Of a DNA stretch of 64,000 bases, positions 7,093 through 56,728 are shown one piece after another. The notes below the pieces were generated by a model. That model was not told the DNA's origin, did no database searches, and was given only the letters and a program-made list of their open reading frames with translations. Every line of letters begins with the position of its first letter. Position 1 is the first letter of the stretch. The position numbers and the translations under genes are program-made. This DNA is from Candidatus Woesearchaeota archaeon (GTDB lineage Archaea > Nanobdellota > Nanobdellia > SCGC-AAA011-G17 > PNOQ01): contig JBDRML010000016.1 of the NCBI GenBank assembly GCA_043812195.1, forward strand, positions 22,093-86,092, written 5' to 3'.

Positions 7093-8307
7093 ATGAAAGC
7101 TCTATTAATAACTGAATACTTTCCACCAATAATACATGGGGGAGGTGAAATAAGCGCATATTCCCTAGCACAAGCTTTAGCAAAAAATAATATAGAAGTT
7201 CATGTTCTTACTTCTTACTTTCCAAACCTCAAAAAATATGAAGAAAAAGATAATATAAAAATATACAGGCTCTTAGAAACAGGATTAAATCCAAGAAAAC
7301 TAACAGATAATATAAAAAGAAACATTCTATTAAAAAGATCTATAAAAAAATACGCCACAGAACTAAATAAAAAAGAAAATTTTGATATAATACACTTTCT
7401 AAATACAACTTCAATAACAAACTTACCAGAGATAAAAGCAAAAAAAATAGCAACAATAAACAATTACACAAACTTCTGTCCCAAATCAGATTTATATTAT
7501 ACAAAAACAAACTTTTCACCAGGAGAAAAAAATTTCAGAAAATATATAATAGAAATGCTTAATACAAACTACATAGGAAAACAAAAATTAAGATTCTATT
7601 TAAAATACAACCCAGCGTTTTTAACATGGCTATATTTAAATTATCTTCAAAGAAGAAAACAAATAAATTATGTAGATAAATTAATAGTCTTAAATGATCT
7701 CATAAAAAGAAAAAACACAGAAAAAATATACAACATAGCAAATATAGAAACAAAAATAACATTCTATCCAATAAAATCAGAAAACAAAAACCCAATAATT
7801 ACATTTATAGGAACTTTAGAAAAAATAAAGGGGGTAGATCTATTAATAAAAGCTTTCTCAAAAACAAAAGAAGCAAATCTATTAATAGTTGGTTCAGGCT
7901 CAGAAGAAAATAATCTCAAACAACTCTGCAAAGAGCTTAATATAGAAAATAAAGTAGAGTTCACAGGAAAACTAAACCAAAAATACTTACCATATATTTA
8001 TTCAAAAACAGACATAGTAGTATTACCAACAAGATGGCCAGAACCATTTGCTAGAGTTCTATTAGAAGCCACATTTTTCAAAAAACCAATAATAGCTACA
8101 AACACAGGTGGAAATCCAGAAGCAGTAATAGAAAATCTAAACGGGTTCCTAATAAACACAGAACAAGAACTAGCAAACAAGCTAAATATACTAATTAACA
8201 ATAAAAATCTAAGGGAAAAAATGGCTATAGAATCAGGAAATATATACAAAACTAAATTCATAACAGAAAAAATTATAAAGCAAATAATACACCTCTATCA
8301 AAAATGA
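7093..8307 (+). CDS. GT4 family (group 1) glycosyltransferase
   Basis: N-terminal ITEYFPPIIHGGGE; C-terminal EPFARVLLEATFFKKPIIATNTGGNPE (E-x7-E GT4 signature). Confidence 0.8.
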   Translation: MKALLITEYFPPIIHGGGEISAYSLAQALAKNNIEVHVLTSYFPNLKKYEEKDNIKIYRLLETGLNPRKLTDNIKRNILLKRSIKKYATELNKKENFDIIHFLNTTSITNLPEIKAKKIATINNYTNFCPKSDLYYTKTNFSPGEKNFRKYIIEMLNTNYIGKQKLRFYLKYNPAFLTWLYLNYLQRRKQINYVDKLIVLNDLIKRKNTEKIYNIANIETKITFYPIKSENKNPIITFIGTLEKIKGVDLLIKAFSKTKEANLLIVGSGSEENNLKQLCKELNIENKVEFTGKLNQKYLPYIYSKTDIVVLPTRWPEPFARVLLEATFFKKPIIATNTGGNPEAVIENLNGFLINTEQELANKLNILINNKNLREKMAIESGNIYKTKFITEKIIKQIIHLYQK

Positions 8308-8849
8308 ATAAGAAACTCAATATGGGATGTAATAGAAAAAAATTAAATGGTTATCTAAACGCAGATATAAATAATAATACAAATCCAGATATGGTAGTTC
8401 CACCATTACCTCAAAGACAACCATTTAAAGATAAAGAATTTGATGAAGTATTATTTGATAATTGCATGCAATATGTCCCTGTAATAGATATAGTTCCTAG
8501 TTTAAAAGAAATGTGTAGAATAGGTAAAAAAGTTATAGTCAGTTTTAGTCCTAAAAATATGGTTGGTAGTACTATATTTGAAAGAGGGATAAATATGATT
8601 GGTTATTCTATATTAAGTTTTTATTATTTGGATGAAGAAAATAGAAAAAGTAAATCATGGAGAGATTGGGATTATGATTTTAAGATAAATAAAATTTGGT
8701 TTGAATTAAATTTTAGAAGGTTTTGGCATGTTAGATTATTGGAATGGTGGGTAAATAAATCTAAAAGAAATCAGCAACTGTATGAAAACTCATGTTTATT
8801 TTATTTATTTCCTGCCAGATGGATATGGATAGAATTTAAAGGAGTTTAA
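8304..8849 (+). CDS. small putative SAM-dependent methyltransferase-like protein
   Basis: LNMGCNRKKLNGYLNADI N-terminus and later FDEVLFDNCMQYV...EMCRIGKKVIVSF resemble class I methyltransferases. Weak. Confidence 0.35.
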   Translation: MNKKLNMGCNRKKLNGYLNADINNNTNPDMVVPPLPQRQPFKDKEFDEVLFDNCMQYVPVIDIVPSLKEMCRIGKKVIVSFSPKNMVGSTIFERGINMIGYSILSFYYLDEENRKSKSWRDWDYDFKINKIWFELNFRRFWHVRLLEWWVNKSKRNQQLYENSCLFYLFPARWIWIEFKGV

Positions 8850-8899
8850 AAAGAACCAGATGAAAATGATGATTTTGAGAATTTAAAATAAGTTAAAAA

Positions 8900-9382
8900 A
8901 TGGAAACGAAGAAAATAAATTTCGGCTGTGGAAAAGATATAAAAAAGGGTTTTTTAAATGTCGATTACCCAGAGATTAATTTGAATAAACCATTACATTA
9001 TCAAGATAATGAATTTGATTATGGTTTGTGTAAATCAGTTATACCTTACTTAAAAAATTTGCATTTTTCATTAAAAGAAATGAAAAGAATATGTAAAAAA
9101 TTAGAAGTTGCATTTCCACATTTCTCTGTTGGGACCCCTAATCAAATATCTTATGGTAAGGTCTATTACTTGGGATTTAGTATTAACAATATGTTTCTAT
9201 TAAAACCTGATGAGATTATAGTTAAAAATTCTTTCTTTAAAATAAAATTAAAGAAGAAGAATTGGAAAGGGAAATTAATGATTTATTTTGAGCAGTATCT
9301 TAGTGCTATAATTAAAATAAGAGAAATGTATTTAATATGGAATAAAAAATCTAATAATTCGCAGGAGAAAACAGGGAGTTGA
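8900..9382 (+). CDS. small putative SAM-dependent methyltransferase-like protein, paralog of 8304..8849
   Basis: INFGCGKDIKKGFLNVD N-terminus; similar layout to the upstream gene. Confidence 0.35.
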   Translation: METKKINFGCGKDIKKGFLNVDYPEINLNKPLHYQDNEFDYGLCKSVIPYLKNLHFSLKEMKRICKKLEVAFPHFSVGTPNQISYGKVYYLGFSINNMFLLKPDEIIVKNSFFKIKLKKKNWKGKLMIYFEQYLSAIIKIREMYLIWNKKSNNSQEKTGS

Positions 9383-9478
9383 TTAAGAATGGAAAACCAA
9401 AACAATCAAGAAAAATATATGAAACAAAATTCAATCCTCAAAAACTAATAAAGCAAATAATAACCCTATACCAAAATG
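9383..9478 (+). repeat. degenerate copy of the 3' end of the GT4 gene 7093..8307
   Basis: Seen directly: ~75% identity to 8235..8310, including the ...aaagcaaataata...ccaaaATGA stop/start overlap arrangement. Confidence 0.5.
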
Positions 9479-9850
9479 AAAATAGCATTACTAATACCAT
9501 CTTTTCTTCCAATGAATGAAGGAGCAAAAAATGGATTTTTAGTTCCTTCTCAAGATTTAGAATTATTTACAGAAAAAGTAACCGTTTAGCTACCTTTTGC
9601 TTTATCGACGATAAACATGATTTTTCACAAAAATGGCCAAAATTGGCTCAGTGACGTTTTTATTCTCGATAAATTAGTTTTTCACTTTCTTTCAGTGGGC
9701 GATCAGCTAAACGGTTACCAGAAAAACAAACATTTTAATACAAAATAAAGACTTAAGAGAAAAATGTCTTTAGAATCAGAAAATATATACAAAACTAAAT
9801 TCATAACAGAAAAAATTATAAAGCAAATAATTGATCTTTATAGTAAATGA
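9477..9850 (+). pseudogene. remnant glycosyltransferase gene: ~34 N-terminal codons (MKIALLIPSFLPMNEGAKNGF...) and ~37 C-terminal codons (near-identical to the GT4 7093..8307 C-terminus) separated by a 141-bp inverted-repeat element
   Basis: Seen directly: 9735..9850 matches 8193..8307 (…ESENIYKTKFITEKIIKQII…*); 9477..9577 encodes a GT4-like N-terminus with no downstream body. Confidence 0.5.
9578..9718. repeat. inverted-repeat element: 14-bp perfect terminal inverted repeats (GTAACCGTTTAGCT / AGCTAAACGGTTAC) around a 113-bp core with internal imperfect direct repeats (CGATAAAc.tgaTTTTTCAC); MITE-like or recombination scar
   Basis: Seen directly in sequence; the same 14-20 nt motif recurs at 39831..39881 and 55901..55918. 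Confidence 0.6.
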
Positions 9851-9891
9851 GTTCATAAGTTTTATAAAACAAATCTCGATTATTTCTGATA

Positions 9892-10869
9892 ATGAAAAAA
9901 GCACTTATTACAGGTATTACTGGTCAAGATGGTTCTTACTTAGCAGAATTATTATTAAATAAGGAATATGAAGTTCACGGAATCGTAAGAAGAGCAGCAA
10001 TAGAAGATTCCAATCATAGATTAAGTAGAATTAAACATATAGAAGACAGCATAGAACTACATCCGGGATCTCTCGAAGCATATCCTACCATATTCAATAT
10101 TTTTCAAGAAGTCAAACCAGATGAATGTTATCATCTGGCATCACAGAGTTTTGTTTTTGAATCATTTAAAGATCCATTCACAACATTCAATACAAACATT
10201 TATGGAACACTTCATGTTTTAGAAGCATTAAAAAGAGTAACACCAAATTGTAGATTCTATTTTGCAGGCACATCTGAAATGTTCGGAAATATAAAAGAAT
10301 CACCACAAAATGAAAAAACCCCTTTCCACCCAAGATCTCCATATGGAATATCTAAAAACACTGGATTTGATTTAACTAGAAATTATAGGGAAGGTCACAA
10401 TATATTTGGAGCTTCTGGAATATTATTCAACCATGAATCGCCGAGAAGAGGCCTAGAATTTGTTACAAGAAAAATAACAGATGGAGTTGCAAAAATAAAA
10501 CATGGTTTAGAAAGTGAATTAAGATTAGGAAACTTAGACGCTAAAAGAGATTGGGGGTTTGCTAAAGACTATGTAGAAGCCATGTGGATGATGTTACAAG
10601 CTGAAGAACCATCAGATTATGTGGTTTCCTCAGGAAGATCGCACTCCATAAGAGATTTCTTAGATATCGCATTCAACCATGTTGGTTTAGAATTTAGGGA
10701 TTATGTCAAAGTTGATCCAAAATTCTTAAGACCAGCAGAGGTACACACACTACAAGGAGATTCATCAAAAATAAAAACAGAACTTGGATGGGAACCCAAA
10801 ACAGAATTTGGGGATCTAATAAAAATGATGGTAGATCATGATATGGAAAGAGTCAAAAAAGAATTGTAA
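9892..10869 (+). CDS. gmd: GDP-mannose 4,6-dehydratase
   Basis: MKKALITGITGQDGSYLAELLLNKEYEVHGIVRR N-terminus and overall length are characteristic of Gmd. Confidence 0.9.
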   Translation: MKKALITGITGQDGSYLAELLLNKEYEVHGIVRRAAIEDSNHRLSRIKHIEDSIELHPGSLEAYPTIFNIFQEVKPDECYHLASQSFVFESFKDPFTTFNTNIYGTLHVLEALKRVTPNCRFYFAGTSEMFGNIKESPQNEKTPFHPRSPYGISKNTGFDLTRNYREGHNIFGASGILFNHESPRRGLEFVTRKITDGVAKIKHGLESELRLGNLDAKRDWGFAKDYVEAMWMMLQAEEPSDYVVSSGRSHSIRDFLDIAFNHVGLEFRDYVKVDPKFLRPAEVHTLQGDSSKIKTELGWEPKTEFGDLIKMMVDHDMERVKKEL

Positions 10870-10870
10870 A

Positions 10871-12025
10871 ATGAATATTTGTTTGATAAACCCTTCTTTC
10901 TTTCCAGTTAGAGGGGGAGGAGAACAATTAACATATGACGTTGCAAAGGAATTATCAAATTCAAACAAAGTAGTAATCGCAACAGAACAGTTACCAAACA
11001 CAAAACCTATAGAAATAATAAACAACATAAAGGTATACAGAGCAAAAACTTCAAAAATTCCATTCTTAAGATTATTTTTAAATCAAATATATTTCTACAA
11101 AATGTTGCTAAAAATAATCGATAAAGAAAAAATAAATTTGCTTCATATGTTTCACCTTTTCAATTTGGGAGGTGCGGCAGTTTTAGCCAAAAGAAAGAAA
11201 AAATTAAAACTAATAACTAGTCTAATTGGATGGGACACATATGATCCAATAAAACCTGTTCCAAAATACGCATTTCCATACATGGCATGGGTAATGAACA
11301 ACTCAGACACTGTATTAACTAGCTCTAAACACTTATTAAAATCTGCAAGAAAACAAGGTGCAAGAAAACAAATTCCAATAATCTCACATGGAACAAATTT
11401 GCATAGAATAAAGCAAAAAACAATAGATATAAAAAAAAAATATAACATAAAAAAAGATGAAAAAATTGTTTTCTCTCTTCAAAGACTTCACAAAAGAAAA
11501 GGTTTAGAATATTTAATTCTTGCAGCCAAAAAAGTTCTGGCAAACAAACCAAATATAAAATTCATAATCGGAGGAAAGGGTCCTGAACTAAATAATTTAA
11601 AAGTACTTGCCAAAAGACTAAGACTAGAAAAAAATATTATATTCGCTGGATTCATACCAGACGAAGAATTAAACAATTACTATCAAACTGCAGATCTCTT
11701 CTCATTGCCAAGTCTTTACGAAGGGTTTGGAATAGTTTATGTGGATGCTCTAATCAATGGATTACCAATAGCAACAACAAAATGTGGCGGTTCAGAAGAA
11801 ATGGTAAACAAATCAAATGGAATTTTAGTAAAACCAAAAAGTAGCGAACAATTAGCCAATGCAATCTTAGAAGTATTAAACAAAACATGGAATAAAAAAG
11901 AAATCAAGAAAAATGCTGAAAAATATAAATGGGAAAATATAATAAAAAAATACGAAGAAATTTATGAAAAACTATCTTTTTCTGTATCTAATAACCCAAA
12001 ACAACACATTCTTAATCCAAGCTAA
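10871..12025 (+). CDS. GT4 family glycosyltransferase
   Basis: Start moved to in-frame ATG at 10871 (MNICLINPSFFPVRGGGEQ), just after the gmd stop; C-terminal EGFGIVYVDALINGLPIATTKCGG GT4 signature. Confidence 0.8.
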   Translation: MNICLINPSFFPVRGGGEQLTYDVAKELSNSNKVVIATEQLPNTKPIEIINNIKVYRAKTSKIPFLRLFLNQIYFYKMLLKIIDKEKINLLHMFHLFNLGGAAVLAKRKKKLKLITSLIGWDTYDPIKPVPKYAFPYMAWVMNNSDTVLTSSKHLLKSARKQGARKQIPIISHGTNLHRIKQKTIDIKKKYNIKKDEKIVFSLQRLHKRKGLEYLILAAKKVLANKPNIKFIIGGKGPELNNLKVLAKRLRLEKNIIFAGFIPDEELNNYYQTADLFSLPSLYEGFGIVYVDALINGLPIATTKCGGSEEMVNKSNGILVKPKSSEQLANAILEVLNKTWNKKEIKKNAEKYKWENIIKKYEEIYEKLSFSVSNNPKQHILNPS

Positions 12026-12619
12026 ATTAAACAAAACTGCAAACAACAACAACAAAACCACTAATTGATTAAAAATAATCAAAACAGATATAACTAAATT
12101 CTGTATTGCAACATCTACTTCAATTGGTTTCTGATCTTTTGGTTTTGAATCTTCAACATTAAATTTAACTTTAGTAAATAATGCACTATGTCTCCAAAAC
12201 AAGGTGCTTATAATAGCCAAAATAGATAAAACCATAACAAAAAGAGAGGGTTCATTAATATAAATCACAACAGAAATTGCTATAAGAATTATCAATTCCC
12301 TTATTCTATCTAATATTCCATCAAGCCATGCTCCAAATTGAGAAGCTTTTCCTTTAAGTCTAGCAAGTTCTCCATCAACCAAATCAAAAACCCAAGAAAA
12401 CCAATAAACTATTCCTGCAAATACATAATTCCCATTTAATAAGAGAAAAGCAGAAAAGACACCAATTAAAAAACTGAGAACCGTCACAAAATTTGGAGAA
12501 ATAAATCTAAGCTTATAAAAAAGCACAGTAAAGGGATATGAAAACAACCTACTAAACTCGAACAAATAAGATTCCTTAAAAGATTTTCTTCTCCTTCTCC
12601 ATAAAGATTGCATTCTCAA
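11972..12619 (-). CDS. CDP-alcohol phosphatidyltransferase family membrane protein
   Basis: DLVDGELARLKGKASQFGAWLDGILDRIRE matches D-G-x2-A-R-x8-G-x3-D-x3-D. Confidence 0.7.
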   Translation of the reverse strand: MRMQSLWRRRRKSFKESYLFEFSRLFSYPFTVLFYKLRFISPNFVTVLSFLIGVFSAFLLLNGNYVFAGIVYWFSWVFDLVDGELARLKGKASQFGAWLDGILDRIRELIILIAISVVIYINEPSLFVMVLSILAIISTLFWRHSALFTKVKFNVEDSKPKDQKPIEVDVAIQNLVISVLIIFNQLVVLLLLFAVLFNLAWIKNVLFWVIRYRKR

Positions 12620-12709
12620 AAACTACAAAACCTCGTATATAAAGTTTATTAAAATTAATTTAGAATCCACAAAGCTTAAGAATAGTATAACATTCCAAAT
12701 CATGTTTAA

Positions 12710-13471
12710 ATGAATTTAAAAGAGAGATACAATAAAATAAAAGAGCACTCATTCAGCAGAGCCAGAAAATACAAAGGATTTGACAAAATCTACGATACAT
12801 TTATGAGAGTTATAACATTTATACCAGTATTCATTTTATCCTTTTTTCCTATAACAGGTAACGCTGTATCAATATTAGCCATTTTAGGTAATTTTCTAGC
12901 ATTCTATTTATTTATAACTCAACAATTTATTTTAGGTATAATAATCATTTTTGCTACTGAAGTATTAGATTACATGGATGGAACTGTAGCAAGGATAAGA
13001 AATGAAAAAAATCCAATAATGGGTAGCTTTTTAGGAAGGTTATATCATGTAGTTAGTTTTGGGATAATTTTTATCGGTATTTGTATAGGAATTGGTATTT
13101 GGGAGATGGGTATAGTATTAGGGATTAGTTATTATATCAGAGTATATATGATAGAATTAAGAAATAGTCTATTAAACATAGTCCACAAAGATATTCAAAA
13201 ACCAGAAGAAACAAAAAAACAAAACAAATTATATAAATTTATCAAAAATCTTATAGTATTTCCAATAAGTGATGGAAAGGTTATTATTCTAATAATTTTA
13301 ATTAGCATAATATTGGGCATTTTAAAAGAAGTTATGATATTTTATGCAATTCATTCAGTAATTTTAGCTTTAGCAGTATTTGTAATAACATATAGACAAT
13401 TAATAGCAAAAAAGAAGGAACCTACAGAAAATAGTAACATAAACATTAAAAAAGAAGAAGAGGTAAATTAA
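12710..13471 (+). CDS. CDP-alcohol phosphatidyltransferase family membrane protein (second copy)
   Basis: EVLDYMDGTVARIRNEKNPIMGSFLGRLYH; multi-TM. Confidence 0.6.
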   Translation: MNLKERYNKIKEHSFSRARKYKGFDKIYDTFMRVITFIPVFILSFFPITGNAVSILAILGNFLAFYLFITQQFILGIIIIFATEVLDYMDGTVARIRNEKNPIMGSFLGRLYHVVSFGIIFIGICIGIGIWEMGIVLGISYYIRVYMIELRNSLLNIVHKDIQKPEETKKQNKLYKFIKNLIVFPISDGKVIILIILISIILGILKEVMIFYAIHSVILALAVFVITYRQLIAKKKEPTENSNINIKKEEEVN

Positions 13472-37583: not shown

Positions 37584-39593
37584 TTATTTTTTCTTTTTCA
37601 ACACACTGAATAATATTATTGCTATTATAACTATCGCAACAATAACTATTATCCATACATAGCCTGTCGTACTTGGCACAGTAGATGTATCTCCAGCCGT
37701 AGTTGTAGTATCTGATTCATCATCACCTGACGTAGTCTGAGTTTCAACAAGACCTGTTATCCTAAAGTCGGCTTCATTATTCACATTTATTCTCAATAAT
37801 TTAACCATGGTATCGTCAATTCCGTTATCATTCAAATCAAATTGTTTTTCCTGTCCGACTGTAAATGTCGATGTAACAGGTGCAGATCTAATTGTTATTG
37901 TTGCTGTACCAGTAACAGAATCAGCTGAATCTACAGTAATTGAATGTCCAATTCCACTTAATCTAAAGCTATGGCTTTCTCCAGCTCCTAATCCTCTTGC
38001 AGTAGTGCTTCCACCATCTTCTATATCAACTAATTCCTCTGTTTCTGTTTCATCTCCAGTATCACTAGCTCCACCACCAGTATCTGTATCACCACTACCT
38101 CCAGACGCAGCTATCGCAACTGTAATTTGTCTCGTTCCGGATGCTCCTCGTCTTCCAGATTTGTCGTAACAATAAATATACCAATCGACATTTTCACCTT
38201 CTAGGTTACTATTATCTGTAGTAGTTATTGTGAAATTAACCACAGTATCTGTAATCGTAGTTGTATTAGAAAATAACACATTATTAAGACTTAGTGTACA
38301 ATTATTCACAATACCATTCTCACCCGTCACATCACTAACAACATATATAAAAGTCGTAGAACCATCTATATCAGAATCGCCATCTACTGGAGATAATGAA
38401 GTTATATTTGGATCCCAAGTATCAATAGCAAATGTTCTATTACTCGTCACATTAAACATTGCATTTGAATTGTTATCATAAGCTAAGCAATTCCACTTAT
38501 ATGTAACATTAGTTCCATTATCAGTGCTCTGATCACTTGCATTAGTCAAATTAGTGTAACCAGTTATGTTAAATAATTCAGACCAAGTTCCATTTTCTGC
38601 TCCGCTAACATTAATACTATAATTAAATGCCTGTGCCCCACTAGTAGCATTCCAAACCATAAAGACCATACTTGATATATTAGCTGCACGATTAACACTA
38701 TTGGGTGTTGTAGGTGTCGCACTACAATTAAATCCATTAGGACTAGTATTGGTAAACCATGTATCATTGTTAACTCCCGCGTGTGTTGTAGCTATAGTCA
38801 AAGTATCAAAGATAAATGTGCTACTTACATTACTATTACTAGCATTGTCAAAACACTGCACATACCATTCTAATGTATCATCAAAAATATCCAACGATGT
38901 AATTGAAAAATTAGTCATTGATCCGTTTCTATGTGTTGATGTATTAGTTTCATTTATTGCACCATTCAAATACAAACTACAATTCTTCTCAACCCTTACA
39001 GCACCAGATAAAGCACCTATAGAATCTGATACGTTAAATGAAAATTGGAACGCTCTACTATTAGTAGGTCCACTAAATATTGTTCTGTTCAGTGTATCGC
39101 CATGCCAATTCATAGTAATGGCTGGAGCTACAGAATCTAAACCAAACGTACGGTTAGATGTATTATAACTATAATTACCATCTTTAAATGCAGCATAACA
39201 ATTCCATGACCAATTAAGTCCTCCATCCATCTCAGTTAAATTTGTAACAGTAAAATTTACAGTTAAAGTTCCATTAACCGCGCTCTCATTACTATAACCA
39301 TAATCTGCACTAGTTGAATTTACTAATACTTGCAAAGCAGTAGAATTTCCACTTGTATTTGTAGTATTCCAAACCAAAAGAGTTATACTAGTAACATTAG
39401 TATCTCCTGTAGCTGTTGCAGAACAATTAAAAGTCATATTATTTCCTGAAGTGGTCCAATAATTATCAGCTGGTGAATTAAAAGTAACAGGCCCTACATC
39501 ACCCTTAGCCATAAAAGCCATAACAATAATAATTAAAATATATATAAAGATTCTCCCGTAATTAAAATTTTTCTTCAATAAAAACACCTCCAT
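37584..39593 (-). CDS. cell-surface glycoprotein: N-terminal signal/anchor, ~600-aa ectodomain saturated with N-x-S/T sequons, Thr/Ser-rich linker, C-terminal TM anchor + KKKK
   Basis: Seen directly: dozens of N-x-T/S sequons (NMTFNCSATATGDTNVTSITLLVWNTTNTSGNSTALQVLVNSTS...); C-terminus ...TTTTAGDTSTVPSTTGYVWIIVIVAIVIIAIILFSVLKKKK. Confidence 0.6.
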   Translation of the reverse strand: MEVFLLKKNFNYGRIFIYILIIIVMAFMAKGDVGPVTFNSPADNYWTTSGNNMTFNCSATATGDTNVTSITLLVWNTTNTSGNSTALQVLVNSTSADYGYSNESAVNGTLTVNFTVTNLTEMDGGLNWSWNCYAAFKDGNYSYNTSNRTFGLDSVAPAITMNWHGDTLNRTIFSGPTNSRAFQFSFNVSDSIGALSGAVRVEKNCSLYLNGAINETNTSTHRNGSMTNFSITSLDIFDDTLEWYVQCFDNASNSNVSSTFIFDTLTIATTHAGVNNDTWFTNTSPNGFNCSATPTTPNSVNRAANISSMVFMVWNATSGAQAFNYSINVSGAENGTWSELFNITGYTNLTNASDQSTDNGTNVTYKWNCLAYDNNSNAMFNVTSNRTFAIDTWDPNITSLSPVDGDSDIDGSTTFIYVVSDVTGENGIVNNCTLSLNNVLFSNTTTITDTVVNFTITTTDNSNLEGENVDWYIYCYDKSGRRGASGTRQITVAIAASGGSGDTDTGGGASDTGDETETEELVDIEDGGSTTARGLGAGESHSFRLSGIGHSITVDSADSVTGTATITIRSAPVTSTFTVGQEKQFDLNDNGIDDTMVKLLRINVNNEADFRITGLVETQTTSGDDESDTTTTAGDTSTVPSTTGYVWIIVIVAIVIIAIILFSVLKKKK

Positions 39594-39830: not shown

Positions 39831-39881
39831 CGTAACCATTTAGTATGCTTAGGCAAACCCTAAGCAGCTAAACGGTTACCG
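39831..39881. repeat. long near-perfect hairpin (22-bp stem, 5-nt loop) whose arms carry the GTAACC(A/G)TTTAG...AGCTAAACGGTTACC motif
   Basis: Seen directly: cgtaaccatttagtatgcttagg-caaac-cctaagcagctaaacggttaccg. Confidence 0.6.
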
Positions 39882-39922: not shown

Positions 39923-40072
39923 ATGGAAACTGTAACAATACCAAAGGAAGAGTATGAATGCTTAAAAGAGAAAGCAGAATTAGATGAAGATTTATTAATT
40001 TCATTAGTCAGAGGTTTAGAAGATATAAAATCCGGCAGAATAAAACCATGGAAAAGCAAAATTAAAGATTAA
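39923..40072 (+). CDS. small ORF (49 aa) with antitoxin-like C-terminus (…GLEDIKSGRIKPW), convergent with and overlapping the RelE-like gene
   Basis: Not in the supplied ORF track (<60 aa); ATG at 39923, TAA at 40070. Weak. Confidence 0.25.
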   Translation: METVTIPKEEYECLKEKAELDEDLLISLVRGLEDIKSGRIKPWKSKIKD

Positions 40073-40373
40073 GTTTTCTTTTGATTTCTTCTTTATAGGT
40101 GGGTATTAAACTTTTTATTTTATCGATTGCTTTTTGTTGATCCCTTTTAGTGCTTATAGCAATTAAAAAAACTACAACATGTTCTTCATAAATTAGATAG
40201 TATATTCTATGGTTTTTAATTTTCTTCTCTCTGAAGAATTTATAACCTAAAGATCTACCAACGTAGGGATTCATTTCTAATTGTTCAATTTCGTTATCGA
40301 TCATTATTTGAAGAGATTTATCTAATCTATCAAAATACTTATCATATTCATCTGTAGTGAATATATTGTACAT
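40062..40373 (-). CDS. RelE/ParE-family type II toxin
   Basis: 103 aa; ...KKIKNHRIYYLIYEEHVVVFLIAISTKRDQ matches the RelE/StbE family C-terminal pattern. Confidence 0.55.
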   Translation of the reverse strand: MYNIFTTDEYDKYFDRLDKSLQIMIDNEIEQLEMNPYVGRSLGYKFFREKKIKNHRIYYLIYEEHVVVFLIAISTKRDQQKAIDKIKSLIPTYKEEIKRKLNL

Positions 40374-42477: not shown

Positions 42478-44685
42478 TTACACTATTTGTTCTGTTCCAG
42501 TTAGGCCACTAGCTGCTACACTACTTGCTGCTCTTGCAGTATCTGCTTTCTCCCATCCAGCTACAATCAATGCCATCTTATCGCCATCTTCCATTAACTT
42601 AATAACGGCTGTATCTGCTGCGATTCCAGAAGCACTTTCACAAGCTGGGTAAGTTAAGCTCATCCATTCTGCAGTTAAGCTATTAACACATGGTCCACCA
42701 ACAAGGATTAAATTGTTATAACCAGCTGCTCCAGATTCAGTTACAAGTACTGCTTCAACATTTGTTGCTGCTCCACCTTCATAAACTCCTACATTAGCTT
42801 TTACCTGATCACCAGGAATTTGTAATGTAAACAAGTCGTTGTCTCCAGAAGAATCAGTTTCATCTGCCCTGATACCATATCCAGTTAACAAGTCATATTT
42901 CTTAGCTCCAACCATTACTCTTTCTACAGCAGTTGCAGTTGCACTTGGTGCCAATGTTGCTCCCCATACAACTTCAGTACTTTCAGAGTTATCTGTAGTT
43001 CCAAATCCTAGATAGTTACCAGCTGTAGCGTTTGTAGATTGTATTCTCCACCATAAGTTATCATTCACATCAGTTGCGTTATCTGGAATAATCCCTAAAT
43101 ACCATGCGTCATCTGCACCAATATCTCCGTATGATCCAAAAACCATATCTGTAGATTTAGTATTTCTGTAGTTCACATATCCCCATGCAGTATAATTAGC
43201 ATTATTAGATATATTTCCTGCGTGTTGCACCTTGTTATCTGAGTCTGTATAGAAGATTAAAGTTCTTCCTACATCCCTATCTGCTGTAGCAGAATTATTT
43301 CCAGCAAAAGTGGTATTAGTCCATAAAAAAATCTCGTCTGTTTTTATATCAGATGTTATCTTTGCTGTACCTGCAGCCTCTATTGCACTTTGATCAAGCA
43401 CCAATCCCTCATTTTCATCAGACACTATAGAAATAACAATAGCTGCGCTTGGGAAAAGTCCTGCATTGGTAAGATCTTCTGTATTTTGACTATCTGTATA
43501 AATTTGTACCTGCATATAGTCATCATCAGCCACATTGAAGTCTTTAACTCCTATGTAAGCATATCCCTCTGGCAATCCATAATACTCTCCAGTTCCAGCA
43601 GGGTCTTTATTATAGTTATATGCTTCAAAGTCGTTTTCTATACAAACCTCATTAAAAGATCCAGATGCTCCAGATGTCAAAGCTCCTGCTTGCAATCCCT
43701 TAATATCCCAAACCCAATCAGGATTATTCTTATCACAATCAGGATCACCATGTGCGTCACTTGGAGAACAATATGTAGGATACTTATCTCCATCTTTATA
43801 AGTTACTCTAGCGTCTTCACCAATCACGAATGTTGCAACTGCTTCAGCTGCAGTACCAACACCAGCTATAGCAGAGTCCAAATAAACATCGATTTCTCCT
43901 TCAGAAACTGTAGAACCTTCACTAATTGTTCTCTGGTCATTTCCAAAATCAATAATAGCACTAGTTCCATCTACAGCAACTACTTCCATTGTTATTCCAT
44001 TACCAGAGTATACTTCTCCTGTGTGTCCAACCCAAGTATCACCAACTTGTGCAGTAAAAGATGAGTTGCTTGCAATAGCGTCAACTCTTAATGTCTTTCC
44101 TAAAAACATCATATCAAATGGATTTGAAGTACTAACTATTCCACTCACATTAATATGTTCATCAAAAGTATAACAATACTTAATTGCATCTTTTCTAATC
44201 TCTAACTTAGGATCCCATTCATACTTATCATCACTACTTGTTAGACTAGTTTCCATATCAAAGTTATTAGCAGTAGCTGTTATTTGAAGTTCATGATGGT
44301 AATCATAACTTGTTCCAGCAATACTCACTTCTGCATCATCAAAGATAGCAGAATCTGAGTCATCATAAATTGTATCCAAACCAGTACTTGTTGCAATGTT
44401 ATCTTGTAATTTAATTTCTTCTATCTGAATTAAATCCCCTAGACCTGCAGCTTCAGCTGTAGCTAAACCATCAAAATATGTTTTCAAAGTGCTTCTTGCA
44501 GCGTCATCATTTGTTCCAGCAGCGCTACCTACAACCATTGCAGTATCTACATAAGAATCACTTACAATAAATGGCGCAGGTAAATCAGCTAAAGTTTCTC
44601 CAGCTGCGAATGCGCCCCCGAAAGCAGACAATAACATTAGTCCACCAGCACCAGCTGCTGCTACTTTTTTAATTATTCGTTTCAT
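42478..44685 (-). CDS. large secreted acidic Thr/Ser/Ala/Gly/Asp-rich protein, candidate S-layer or major surface protein
   Basis: Signal peptide MKRIIKKVAAAGAGGLMLLSAFGGAFAAGE; 735 aa, no TM, low-complexity acidic composition; gene visibly more GC-rich than its surroundings. Confidence 0.5.
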   Translation of the reverse strand: MKRIIKKVAAAGAGGLMLLSAFGGAFAAGETLADLPAPFIVSDSYVDTAMVVGSAAGTNDDAARSTLKTYFDGLATAEAAGLGDLIQIEEIKLQDNIATSTGLDTIYDDSDSAIFDDAEVSIAGTSYDYHHELQITATANNFDMETSLTSSDDKYEWDPKLEIRKDAIKYCYTFDEHINVSGIVSTSNPFDMMFLGKTLRVDAIASNSSFTAQVGDTWVGHTGEVYSGNGITMEVVAVDGTSAIIDFGNDQRTISEGSTVSEGEIDVYLDSAIAGVGTAAEAVATFVIGEDARVTYKDGDKYPTYCSPSDAHGDPDCDKNNPDWVWDIKGLQAGALTSGASGSFNEVCIENDFEAYNYNKDPAGTGEYYGLPEGYAYIGVKDFNVADDDYMQVQIYTDSQNTEDLTNAGLFPSAAIVISIVSDENEGLVLDQSAIEAAGTAKITSDIKTDEIFLWTNTTFAGNNSATADRDVGRTLIFYTDSDNKVQHAGNISNNANYTAWGYVNYRNTKSTDMVFGSYGDIGADDAWYLGIIPDNATDVNDNLWWRIQSTNATAGNYLGFGTTDNSESTEVVWGATLAPSATATAVERVMVGAKKYDLLTGYGIRADETDSSGDNDLFTLQIPGDQVKANVGVYEGGAATNVEAVLVTESGAAGYNNLILVGGPCVNSLTAEWMSLTYPACESASGIAADTAVIKLMEDGDKMALIVAGWEKADTARAASSVAASGLTGTEQIV

Positions 44686-45039: not shown

Positions 45040-45990
45040 ATGAATTTAGAAGTAAGAAATGTTGGGAAAAAGAAAAAGTATTATTTAGCTCACTCATTCA
45101 GAGAAGGAAAAAAAGTAAAGAAAATAAGAAGATATTTAGGCTCAAATCTAAATAAAATTCAACTAGAAAAACTAAAAGAAAGATCAGAAGAAATCATAAA
45201 GCAACAAATAGAAAACTATAAGATCATAGCAGATCCATTAAAACACGAATTAACAGAAAAAGAATTAGAATTCCTAAAAAATTTAGAAACAAAAGGAAAA
45301 ATAGAAATAAAACATCTTTCCAAAGAGCAATGGACTAAATTCACAGAGCTTTTTACATATAACACAAATGCCATTGAAGGCTCTGAAGTAAATCAAAAAG
45401 AAGTTAAAGAAATTTTAGAAGAAAACAAATGGCCAAAAGAAGTAGATAGGGAAGATATTTCAGAAACATACGGGGTAGCAGAAGCAATTGAATTCATAAG
45501 AAAAACAAAAGAACATATATCCCTTTCCTTGATTAAAAAAATACACCAAATAATTTTCAAAAATTCCAAATCATTTGCAGGGAAATTTAGAACCAAAGGT
45601 ATTGAAGTAGCTATTAGGGATAAATTAGGAAATATAGCCCATATAGGGGCTCCTGCCAATAGAATTAGAGGATTATTAGAAGAACTAATAGATTGGCATA
45701 ATAAAAATAAGAATAAATATCCCCCAATACTATTAGCCGCTGTTGTTCATAATCAATTTGAAAATATCCACCCTTTTCAAGATGGCAATGGGAGAGTGGG
45801 AAGGCTATTGTTAAATAATATTTTATTAAAAAATAACCTGCCTCCAGTAAATATAAGTCTTGGAAATAGAAGAGAATATTATTCAACTCTACAATCTTAT
45901 CAAAAAAAAGGAGACATAAAACCCACAATTAAATTGATTTTAAAAGAATATAAAGAATTAAAGAAAGAATTAGGTGTCTACAAAAATTAA
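45040..45990 (+). CDS. Fic/Doc family protein (AMPylation/phosphocholination-type)
   Basis: Canonical Fic motif HPFQDGNGRVGRLL. Confidence 0.85.
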   Translation: MNLEVRNVGKKKKYYLAHSFREGKKVKKIRRYLGSNLNKIQLEKLKERSEEIIKQQIENYKIIADPLKHELTEKELEFLKNLETKGKIEIKHLSKEQWTKFTELFTYNTNAIEGSEVNQKEVKEILEENKWPKEVDREDISETYGVAEAIEFIRKTKEHISLSLIKKIHQIIFKNSKSFAGKFRTKGIEVAIRDKLGNIAHIGAPANRIRGLLEELIDWHNKNKNKYPPILLAAVVHNQFENIHPFQDGNGRVGRLLLNNILLKNNLPPVNISLGNRREYYSTLQSYQKKGDIKPTIKLILKEYKELKKELGVYKN

Positions 45991-49322: not shown

Positions 49323-49565
49323 ATGGTGAGCATCACATTATCTGTCCCAGAAGAAATTAAAAAAAGCATGGAAACATTTTCAGAAATAAACTGGTCTGGA
49401 TTTGTCAGAAAATCCATCATAGAAAAAACACAAGAACTAACAAAAAAAGAAGAGTTATTAAAAGAATTAGAAAAAGAAAAAGATATAATAGATTGGTCTG
49501 TAAAACTTCAAAGAGTATCAAGGAAAGGAAGATTCCAAGATTTAAAAAAGAAGGGATTAATATGA
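49323..49565 (+). CDS. ribbon-helix-helix (CopG-like) antitoxin
   Basis: MVSITLSVPEEIKKSMETFSE... beta-strand/helix pattern of RHH antitoxins; stop overlaps the PIN gene start (ATGA). Confidence 0.45.
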   Translation: MVSITLSVPEEIKKSMETFSEINWSGFVRKSIIEKTQELTKKEELLKELEKEKDIIDWSVKLQRVSRKGRFQDLKKKGLI

Positions 49566-49990
49566 AATTGGTAACTGATACAAACATATTATTCACTTTT
49601 TTCTGGAAAAACTCCTATACAAGAAAATTATTCATAAATCAAGATTTAGAATTAATATCTCCAGAATTCGCTTTAGAAGAAATAAAAAAATATTCCGAAG
49701 AAATAATTAGAAGAGCAAAAATATCAAAAAAAGAATTTCAGGATATCAGAAAAGAACTCGCTCTTATGGTTGAATTTATACCTTTAAAAGAATATTCAGA
49801 ATATTTAAAAAAAGCATCAGAAATTTCTTATGATAAAGATGATGTTGATTTTATTGCTTTAGCTTTAAAACTAAAATCCCCCATATGGTCTAATGATAAA
49901 GAATTTAAGAAACAAAATAAAATTAAAGTTTACTCTACTCTAGAAGTTTTAAAAGAATTAAACTATGGATCAATTAATAATGAAAAGTAA
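49562..49990 (+). CDS. PIN-domain toxin (VapC-like)
   Basis: Start moved to in-frame ATG at 49562: MKLVTDTNILF ... DFIALALKLKSPIWSNDKEF (PIN acidic residues). Confidence 0.55.
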   Translation: MKLVTDTNILFTFFWKNSYTRKLFINQDLELISPEFALEEIKKYSEEIIRRAKISKKEFQDIRKELALMVEFIPLKEYSEYLKKASEISYDKDDVDFIALALKLKSPIWSNDKEFKKQNKIKVYSTLEVLKELNYGSINNEK

Positions 49991-55900: not shown

Positions 55901-55918
55901 TAGTAGCTAAACGGTTAC
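55901..55918. repeat. single copy of the AAAAAGTAACCGTTTAGCTAC motif (reverse orientation) between the toxin-antitoxin pair and PCNA
   Basis: Seen directly: tagtagctaaacggttac; reverse complement matches 9572..9592 over 21 nt. Confidence 0.55.
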
Positions 55919-55954: not shown

Positions 55955-56728
55955 CTATTTGTTCTCAACTCTCGGAGCCAAGATAGTCATCAAATGTAAT
56001 TTATCAGTAACTCTGTACTCAACTTGTAATGGATAGTCATCAGAAAACTTTATAGAAACATTATCAGCCAATCTAGCACCTTTTACAATTTTTTTCAAAT
56101 ACTCTGCAGAATATTTTGCTTTTGTAATTTTATCATTATCAAACTTAAACTTATTTTCCTCACTTCTTCTAACTTCAAATCTTGCATCACTAACATTTCC
56201 ACTAGATTCTAAAACAAAAATATCACCATCTGCAACTAAAGAAATAGAATCCGCAACAATTCCCATATCATCTACAGCATCACTAAAGAAATGTGCAGCT
56301 ATTTCAACACTAGCAGCAAAATTCAAATCTGGAACATTCTGGGCTTTATCCTGTAAATCAATTAAACCTATATTAAAACTTCTATTAATCTCTCCTTTCA
56401 AATCAACTTTTAATTTATTCTTGCCTTCATCTAATTCCATTATAATACTATCAGAAGGTTTAGCTCTGCCTAAAATCTGTCTAAACAAATCTAAATTAAT
56501 AGCAAAACTTTCTTCATCCTTAACATCATACTCGACAAAAGCGCTACTTAACAAATTAAAAACAACCATGGCAACATTAGCAGGATCCATAGCAACTATC
56601 TCTAATTTATTAGAATCCAATTTAATCCGAACATCATTAACAAGTTCAGAAATGATATTTATACCTTCTTTCAAAAGTCGTGGTTCAGCTAATACTAATT
56701 TCATCAAAAAAAGAGATGGGTATCTCAT
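55955..56728 (-). CDS. pcn: DNA polymerase sliding clamp (PCNA)
   Basis: …LVLAEPRLLKEGINIISELVNDVRIKLDSNKLEIVAMDPANVAMVVFNLLSSAFVEYDV matches the archaeal PCNA N-terminal domain; true start probably the second Met (56704). Confidence 0.8.
   Translation of the reverse strand: MRYPSLFLMKLVLAEPRLLKEGINIISELVNDVRIKLDSNKLEIVAMDPANVAMVVFNLLSSAFVEYDVKDEESFAINLDLFRQILGRAKPSDSIIMELDEGKNKLKVDLKGEINRSFNIGLIDLQDKAQNVPDLNFAASVEIAAHFFSDAVDDMGIVADSISLVADGDIFVLESSGNVSDARFEVRRSEENKFKFDNDKITKAKYSAEYLKKIVKGARLADNVSIKFSDDYPLQVEYRVTDKLHLMTILAPRVENK

Follow-up and report, generated by a model that had tools for sequence, protein, structure and literature searches.

Bacterial O-antigen and capsule loci carry gene remnants and show mosaic recombination: they are hypervariable polysaccharide clusters in which cassettes are replaced between conserved flanks, leaving behind fragments and insertions of insertion sequences (IS) and miniature inverted-repeat transposable elements (MITEs). 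Here we describe a scar with all of these traits at positions 9347-9850 of a 64,000-nt stretch of DNA (the window) from a Candidatus Woesearchaeota archaeon (GenBank assembly GCA_043812195.1, contig JBDRML010000016.1, positions 22,093 to 86,092). It differs from the bacterial loci in that the host is a reduced-genome archaeon and that the repeats derive specifically from the 3´ end of a single glycosyltransferase family 4 (GT4) gene. Strings of orphaned 3´ ends are also known from Rhs, contact-dependent inhibition (CDI) and type VI secretion system (T6SS) effector-immunity loci, where they are attributed to displacement through homology-facilitated illegitimate recombination (PMC5361080). As in those loci, 3´ fragments of a gene lie downstream of its intact copy, each beside its former downstream genes, the junctions are without evident homology, and relatives carry alternative haplotypes at a variable junction. 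The differences are that the gene in question encodes a glycosyltransferase in an archaeal glycan island and not a polymorphic toxin, that retaining the former downstream genes brings no evident immunity-like benefit, that one of the displacements left, in addition, a 5´ stub of the gene downstream, and that here we infer the mechanism.

The present gene order is GT4a / MT1-MT2 :: GT4a-3´ (orphan 1) / GT4b-5´ stub :: GT4a-3´ (orphan 2 with a MITE) - GMD - GT4b, where GT4a and GT4b are intact glycosyltransferase genes, MT1 and MT2 are small methyltransferase-like genes and GMD encodes a GDP-mannose 4,6-dehydratase. We are highly confident that 9347-9850 consists of non-functional remnants, and we propose no cellular function for any part of it. 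With less assurance, we favor two successive displacement events as the probable source of what would be a mosaic of three haplotypes. As a whole, the feature is a further case of processes already known, namely cassette-displacement remnants, gene conversion and MITE insertion, and reveals no new mechanism or function. The pieces of the scar, together with the gene that serves as their reference, are:

7093 to 8307, plus strand: GT4a, intact GT4 glycosyltransferase of 404 amino acids (Pfam Glycos_transf_1, 3.4e-41, and Glyco_transf_4), with which the orphaned 3´ ends are compared
8228 to 8288, plus strand: 61-nt gene-conversion or mosaic tract, equivalent to 9771-9831 with one mismatch
9347 to 9478, plus strand: orphan 1 ('stub3'), GT4a-type 3´ end, ~residues 365-404, solid from ~9395
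9476 to 9526, plus strand: 5´ stub ('psiN'), MKIALLIPSFLP(MNEGA), a GT4b-type start; junction to orphan 2 between 9511 and 9530
9527 to 9577, plus strand: orphan 2 part 1, GT4 C-terminal-domain sequence KNGFLVPSQDLELFTEK, ~GT4a residues 350-362, in frame with psiN
9727 to 9850, plus strand: orphan 2 part 2, GT4a-type 3´ end, ~residues 363-404, ending ...TNILIQNKDLREKMSLESENIYKTKFITEKIIKQIIDLYSK and a stop codon, with 1-nt frameshifts at ~9727 and ~9760

Orphaned 3´ ends of GT4a

Across the 64-kb window, the GT4a-family profile (60 GT4a homologs) matched only GT4a, GT4b and the two orphans, each of which lacks at least 345 of the 404 codons. Orphan 1 was detected with GT4a by tblastn (E = 5e-7 for 9383-9478), scored 20.3 bits at positions 381-405 of the GT4a-family profile compared to 8.5 bits on the GT4b profile, and is 57-60% identical to the C-termini of the relatives' proteins P0003 and P0004. 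Its stop codon is displaced by a 1-nt indel and still adjoins the ATGA that follows. The similarity may reach back to 9347, within the last 11 codons of MT2, in a low-confidence alignment of AT-rich sequence.

Orphan 2 as a whole (~9527-9850) scored 46.9 bits at GT4a profile positions 350-406, and its second part alone scored 33.7 bits on the GT4a profile versus 20.7 on the GT4b profile. After frameshift correction, the orphan 2 peptide and GT4a residues 350-404 share 67% identity (blastp, E = 1e-19), and at the nucleotide level 9716-9850 is 81% identical to GT4a 8171-8307 over 137 nt with two 1-nt indels (85% over 104 nt when ungapped). Once the MITE and one copy of its target duplication are removed, orphan 2 is colinear with GT4a positions 350-406 in three reading frames and must therefore contain two 1-nt frameshifts. 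C-terminal colinear homology and loss of coding integrity were thus both found, as befits a pseudogene fragment of the GT4a orthogroup. When 5.8 billion proteins were searched with the 75-amino-acid frameshift-corrected peptide for an intact ortholog of the fused pseudogene, no candidate shared enough 5-residue words.

The identity between orphan 2 and GT4a is unevenly distributed. The 61-nt tract occupies 61 consecutive columns of a 200-column alignment of which the rest is ~59% identical, and a run of this kind was reached in 0 of 20000 permutations (p < 5e-5); outside the tract, the three GT4a 3´ copies are 59-69% identical to one another. A sequence-only reading of this DNA had reported decayed glycosyltransferase fragments, which is borne out by the GT4a-family profile matches, the frameshifts and the truncation, and had recognized 9383-9478 as a third, diverged GT4a 3´ copy directly after MT2, which agrees with the tblastn and profile scores of orphan 1. 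It had also stated that 9735-9850 reproduces the end of GT4a almost exactly; the similarity is real, and near-exactness is confined to 9771-9831. All three similarities exceed AT-rich chance, as judged by tblastn, profile scores and shuffles or permutations.

The 5´ stub and the arrangements in relatives

The open reading frame (ORF) at 9476-9589 begins MKIALLIPSFLP and ends at a TAG (9587-9589) that lies within the left inverted repeat and is supplied by the MITE; its N-terminal look is limited to the first 12-17 codons. On the GT4b-family N-terminal profile, the stub scored 12.3 bits (12 residues) and 15.3 bits (17 residues), compared to 0.2 and 1.8 bits on the GT4a-family profile. The motif [ST][ED]x[FYW], which follows the N-terminal strand in 112 of 115 full-length GT4a-family proteins (typically as TEYFPP), is missing from the stub. 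The motif P[ST][FYLW].P is present in the stub, in none of the 115 GT4a-family proteins and in 23 of 63 GT4b-family representatives, some of which have exactly PSFLP. The stub and the 5´ end of GT4b in the window share 24 of 36 nt and 7 of 12 residues, against an average of 14 of 36 nt and a maximum of 22 for 69 other ORF starts. Judged by N-terminal profiles and motif, the stub does not belong to the family of the C-terminal remnant: it is GT4b-type rather than GT4a-type.

Codons 18-34 of the same ORF, KNGFLVPSQDLELFTEK, are colinear with C-terminal positions 350-361 of the GT4a-family profile; their alignment scored higher than 2000 of 2000 shuffles and gained 13 bits once joined to the part after the element. 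The N-terminal and C-terminal sequences therefore meet at ~9511-9530, roughly 50-65 bp upstream of the MITE. Given a GT4b-type stub and a GT4a-type C-terminal part, the fused ORF is likely a chimera of two gene types rather than one internally deleted gene. This modifies the earlier description of 9477-9577 as a GT4 N-terminus that stops at the element and of two stubs joined by it: the start and the stop codon in the inverted repeat hold, the N-terminal character does not extend beyond codons 12-17, and the element lies inside the C-terminal remnant and not at the join.

We compared the window with nine relatives' loci (L003, L005, L008, L012, L099, L100, L101, L102 and L103). The upstream order methyltransferase, LPG_synthase_TM, reverse-strand methyltransferase, GT4a is kept in L003, L005, L008, L012 and L100, with GT4a proteins 56-73% identical, and the more distant L101-L103 (GT4a ~50% identical) have other upstream genes. 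In L012, GT4a and a GT4b ortholog overlap at their stop and start codons, and the GT4b ortholog is followed by a CDP-alcohol phosphatidyltransferase gene as in the window, and in L005 GT4a is followed directly by the GT4b ortholog. In L100, GT4a and a GMD 55% identical to that of the window are separated by 23 nt. An epimerase gene lies downstream of GT4a in L099, an EamA gene in L008 and an unrelated reverse-strand gene in L003, and the region also differs in L101, L102 and L103. Because the region downstream of GT4a differs among relatives in this way, we regard it as a variable junction. A tandem GT4a pair was found in none of the nine loci, nor were extra GT4a fragments found in them, and the latter suggests that the scar array is specific to the lineage of the window. 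Separately, the GT4a ortholog at L100:7457-8675 (from an NCBI metagenome-assembled genome, MAG) was called as two ORFs owing to a masked run of N (XXXX), with no real frameshift. The second GT4 of L102 was considered as a further GT4a/GT4b case and rejected, as it is only 31% identical to GT4b and not an ortholog.

Each pair of neighbors in the mosaic exists intact elsewhere: GT4a/GT4b with an ATGA overlap in L012 (...AAAAAATGAATATT...), GT4a-GMD in L100 and MT1-MT2 in L098. The junction between orphan 1 and the stub in the window (...CCAAAATGAAAATA...) shows the same kind of ATGA overlap as L012. Thus, as in sequential displacement, an intact gene is followed by 3´ fragments in direct orientation, and the orphans are linked to followers typical of other haplotypes (L012 and L100, in a set of relatives that are distant at 50-73% identity).

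The order and mechanism of the events, which we infer from the homologies, the breaks, the MITE and the component arrangements seen in the window and its relatives, would be as follows. The resident haplotype would have been GT4a''-GMD-GT4b. An incoming GT4a'/GT4b' segment would have entered by homologous recombination upstream and by an illegitimate join of GT4b' codon ~13-17 to GT4a'' at ~residues 346-350, creating the fusion of stub and orphan 2. A later GT4a/MT1-MT2 segment would then have entered in the same manner, with the end of MT2 joined to GT4a' at ~residues 362-375, leaving orphan 1. At a point in this sequence that is not fixed, a short gene conversion between the live GT4a and orphan 2 probably homogenized the 61 nt. 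The IS66-like MITE would have transposed into orphan 2 after the flanking sequence became contiguous, in an order relative to the displacements that is likewise not fixed.

Several points weigh against this history. The stub comprises only 12-17 codons and the GT4b-family profile is broad, such that 'GT4b-type' strictly denotes a generic PSFxP-type GT4 that is not GT4a. Taken alone, 9527-9577 scores 6.6 bits on the GT4b-family profile versus 0.9 on that of GT4a and may belong with the stub, in which case the junction would move. This higher score arises because NGxLVP is a generic GT4 motif; the segment also shares an EL(x)TEK motif with P0003-P0006, and we assigned it to GT4a because of this motif, its colinearity and its contiguity with the GT4a-type part 2, which is proved by the target duplication. 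The L100 GMD is only 55% identical, and the GT4a-GMD adjacency could be convergent. Finally, we found no close relative (>75% nucleotide identity) in which the arrangement differs, and the order and nature of the events are for this reason drawn from relatives that are 50-73% identical.

Other histories have to account for the same observations. Tandem GT4a paralogs after MT2 might have decayed in place, one keeping only its last ~100-130 nt and the other losing ~1 kb internally, which would explain why three GT4a-like 3´ ends lie in direct orientation and why a single ORF runs through the stub and the C-terminal piece. If one gap is allowed, 7 of 12 residues and 22 of 36 nt of the stub also agree with the GT4a N-terminus, more than the background for ORF starts. 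We nevertheless consider such decay, and with it the tandem GT4 paralogs of the sequence-only reading, unlikely, given that the stub is without the motif found in 112 of 115 GT4a-family proteins and scores ~12-13 bits better on the GT4b-type profile. In addition, the relatives that had been proposed as a source of an intact second GT4 gave 0 of 9 loci with two GT4a copies and instead showed GT4a/GT4b (L012 and L005) and GT4a-GMD (L100) adjacency, and the 59-69% identity outside the converted tract would mean that dead DNA had persisted for a long time in a small genome. The same divergence bears on a ~200-bp tandem duplication across the GT4a/GT4b junction, or Campbell-type single-crossover integration of circular cassettes, with MT1-MT2 and GMD inserted later. 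A junction-spanning duplication is expected to yield the order A'/B'::A''...B, and both inserts are indeed flanked by direct repeats, but at least three events and long divergence would be needed to arrive at 59-69% identity, and neither the position of orphan 2 beside GMD, as in L100, nor the end of MT2 homology exactly at the junction is explained. We therefore judge this history to be quite improbable.

We think it very unlikely that the fragments are functional, be it as small proteins (46, 37 and 28 amino acids), as regulatory RNA or as homology cassettes for glycan-gene switching. A 37-amino-acid ORF was annotated by the gene caller, and the 61-nt direct repeats could delete 8289-9831 to give GT4a-GMD-GT4b; against this stand the frameshifts and the stop codon supplied by the MITE, the lack of any Rfam match at gathering thresholds in the window, the 5.8 billion proteins without a candidate for the reconstructed 75-residue peptide, and the relatives' loci, which have no such fragments. 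Least probable of all is an assembly or binning chimera that merged strain variants at the repeated GT4a 3´ end. One ENA contig (L002) begins inside the repeated tract, at 9781, and several related Woesearchaeota are present in the same samples. However, L002 agrees with the window from 9781 onward, an independent JGI contig (L001) covers 9186-13282, from MT2 through GT4b, at 99.9% identity with no difference in 9186-10382, and the orphans, at 59-69% identity, are too diverged for collapsed strain variants. Collectively, these comparisons leave two successive displacements as the explanation we prefer.

A MITE within orphan 2

Orphan 2 is split by a short element for which the following features were read from the sequence, none with an assigned strand:

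9570 to 9577: left target-site duplication, CAGAAAAA
9578 to 9718: MITE of 141 bp, with perfect 14-bp terminal inverted repeats GTAACCGTTTAGCT / AGCTAAACGGTTAC (9578-9591 with 9705-9718, 14/14 bp complementary)
9719 to 9726: right target-site duplication, CAGAAAAA

An 8-nt match at this spacing is expected by chance at ~5e-5 per site in the window. The only ORF of the MITE, 43 amino acids long, runs out of the element, and pairing of the terminal repeats dominates the predicted DNA fold (z = -3.1). Inverted repeats, a target duplication, copies at unrelated loci and a short length without a transposase gene were all found, as expected of a MITE.

JGI metagenome contigs were scanned for both arms 95-125 nt apart, which gave five stretches, one on the window's own contig and four others (L093, L094, L096 and L097). 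Two of these, L093 and L094, come from an organism of 31% GC and have a 142-bp copy whose overall identity to the MITE of the window is 83%, falling to 79% in the interior. This copy is inverted in the orientation fetched, has unrelated flanks and is bounded by its own 8-bp duplication, TAAACCAG. At L096:1272-1397 and L097:5362-5485 (53-56% GC), we observed elements of 124-126 bp that have identical 14-bp ends but, between them, a GC-rich hairpin of unrelated sequence. Very different organisms thus have this transposon end in common, and one IS66-like transposase lineage could be moving among very different lineages (~30% and 53-56% GC). Plasmid and phage sequences yielded no BLAST match to the MITE variants, and a scan of the window ORFs of 110 amino acids or more between 0.4 and 55 kb detected no transposase domain.

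The window holds a single full copy of the MITE in addition to a 48-bp variant and a solo end. The exact 14-mer occurs four times in the 64 kb, including both MITE arms, and five matches were found at up to 2 mismatches versus 0.16 expected. The 48-bp variant (39832-39879) is a near-perfect palindrome with the MITE termini (GTAACCATTTAGT...AGCTAAACGGTTAC) and an inner hairpin GCTTAGG/CCTAAGC, is without a target duplication, and sits between the gene for a 669-residue surface protein and a small ORF. The solo right terminal repeat AGCTAAACGGTTAC, at 55905-55918, is intergenic and adjacent to a 257-residue ORF (55955-56728, minus strand) that looks like a possible PCNA sliding clamp.

IS66-family ends are reported to start GTAA(C/G)CG or GTAAC; ISDge4 of this family has the end GTAACTGCTCAGCA and an 8-bp direct repeat (PMC12898284), and other members have the end GTAACCGTCCGGGCA (PMC12888890). 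Compared with these published IS66/ISBst12-group ends, the element has the GTAA-type ends and a duplication in the 8-9 bp range of an IS66 derivative: its terminal repeats begin GTAAC (GTAACCGTTTAGCT versus GTAACTGCTCAGCA/GTAACCGTCCGGGCA) and its target duplication is 8 bp, as in IS66 (ISBst12-group-like) elements and the MITEs derived from them. Like IS66-derived MITEs, it is short and non-coding and has a copy at an unrelated site. It differs in that no transposase partner with the MITE ends was found and that the host is a DPANN archaeon, and only the ends were compared, so that the IS66 assignment is one of resemblance between ends.

The intact target duplication indicates that the MITE caused no deletion at its own borders. 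On its sequence context, the MITE is best described as a simple insertion into an existing remnant, inside orphan 2 and away from the fusion junction. A deletion caused by the MITE was considered and ruled out by the intact target duplication and the distance from the junction, and the suggestion that the element mediated the remodeling was abandoned on the same two grounds.

Neighboring genes and the glycan island

The intact genes around the scar, other than GT4a, are:

8304 to 8849, plus strand: MT1, small methyltransferase-like, first gene of a two-gene cassette (weak MetW match)
8900 to 9382, plus strand: MT2, small methyltransferase-like; native part to ~9346, after which junction or remnant DNA supplies the last 11 codons (9347-9382)
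9892 to 10869, plus strand: GMD, GDP-mannose 4,6-dehydratase (Pfam GDP_Man_Dehyd, 1e-121), the gene traveling with orphan 2
10871 to 12025, plus strand: GT4b, intact glycosyltransferase starting MNICLINPSFFP (Pfam GT4 domains; synteny with L012 and L005)

GT4a is 100% identical to P0001, a glycosyltransferase from an NCBI entry named 'MAG: Candidatus Woesearchaeota archaeon', and its stop codon is overlapped by the ATG of MT1 (ATGA). MT1 and MT2 are 33% identical to each other. For MT2, only one other homolog was found among 5.8 billion proteins, P0122, which is 74% identical and ends at MT2 residue 149; MT2 has lost its own stop codon and reads into junction DNA. The Logan contig that carries P0122 (L098) matches the window over 8671-9349 only (L098 positions 9-638, 72% nucleotide identity), that is, over the end of MT1 and MT2. 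This limited match argues that MT1-MT2 is a portable two-gene unit with its right edge at ~9347. In L098, the unit adjoins a small membrane ORF and, in the opposite orientation, a gene that may encode a helix-turn-helix motif (by eye). A search of viral contigs for MT1, MT2 and the MITE pattern found nothing.

Among GTDB species representatives, which do not include the MAG of the window, the nearest relatives of GMD reach only 64-66% identity; most are bacterial (Omnitrophota) and one is from Pacearchaeota. The distribution of GMD looks patchy by this comparison, and the gene may have been transferred horizontally. With GMD as a synteny anchor in GTDB genomes, no GT4a ortholog was found near these best relatives. 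A TATA-like TTTATAAAA at ~9862-9870 is a candidate only, upstream of GMD. The mechanically called GT4b ORF starts at 10838, inside GMD; its homologs start at MNICLINPSFFP (10871), one base past the GMD stop.

A Pfam scan of the window ORFs placed these genes in one large glycan-biosynthesis island (window 3.8-35 kb; window GC 29%) with a GT2, several methyltransferases, an LPG_synthase_TM protein, the two GT4 genes, GMD, CDP-alcohol phosphatidyltransferases, a Wzx-type flippase, NeuB, a UDP-GlcNAc 2-epimerase and aminotransferases. A tRNA scan and an Rfam scan at gathering thresholds over the whole window gave no match, which indicates that it contains neither a known RNA gene nor a tRNA attachment site. 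A scan for bacterial promoters and terminators, whose models are unsuited to an archaeon, gave nothing above shuffled background. Just outside the island, at 37584-39593 and 42478-44685, lie two large putative surface proteins. One of 669 amino acids has dense N-glycosylation sequons (NxS/T) and a C-terminal membrane anchor, and one of 735 amino acids has an S_layer_C match. Possible toxin-antitoxin or defense genes encode a Fic/DOC domain protein (45040-45990) and a PIN_2 domain protein (49562-49990), and a 103-residue ORF (40062-40373) without a Pfam match has the look, by eye, of a RelE/ParE toxin.

The remodeling of the glycan locus that had been read from the window alone is upheld by the mosaic scars and by the variable region 3´ of GT4a in relatives. 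For annotation, the ORFs 9379-9519, 9476-9589 and 9764-9850 should become pseudogene fragments, and the C-terminal tail of MT2 a junction artifact. A bolder and rather doubtful extension is that the GT4a 3´ end might be a recurrent recombination anchor for stacking and swapping methyltransferase, GMD and GT4b cassettes in DPANN archaea, with the 61-nt repeats ready to excise MT1-MT2 and so change the type of glycan within a population; a single IS66-like transposase lineage across lineages would be a separate part of the same conjecture. If true, the locus would parallel, in an archaeal glycan setting, the C-terminal displacement of Rhs/T6SS loci. Independently of this, the window shows that MITEs are present in genome-reduced DPANN genomes. 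It also illustrates, at base resolution, how an uncultured DPANN archaeon with a reduced genome likely rebuilds its surface-glycan island, with cassettes swapped beside a conserved glycosyltransferase gene and datable scars left behind.

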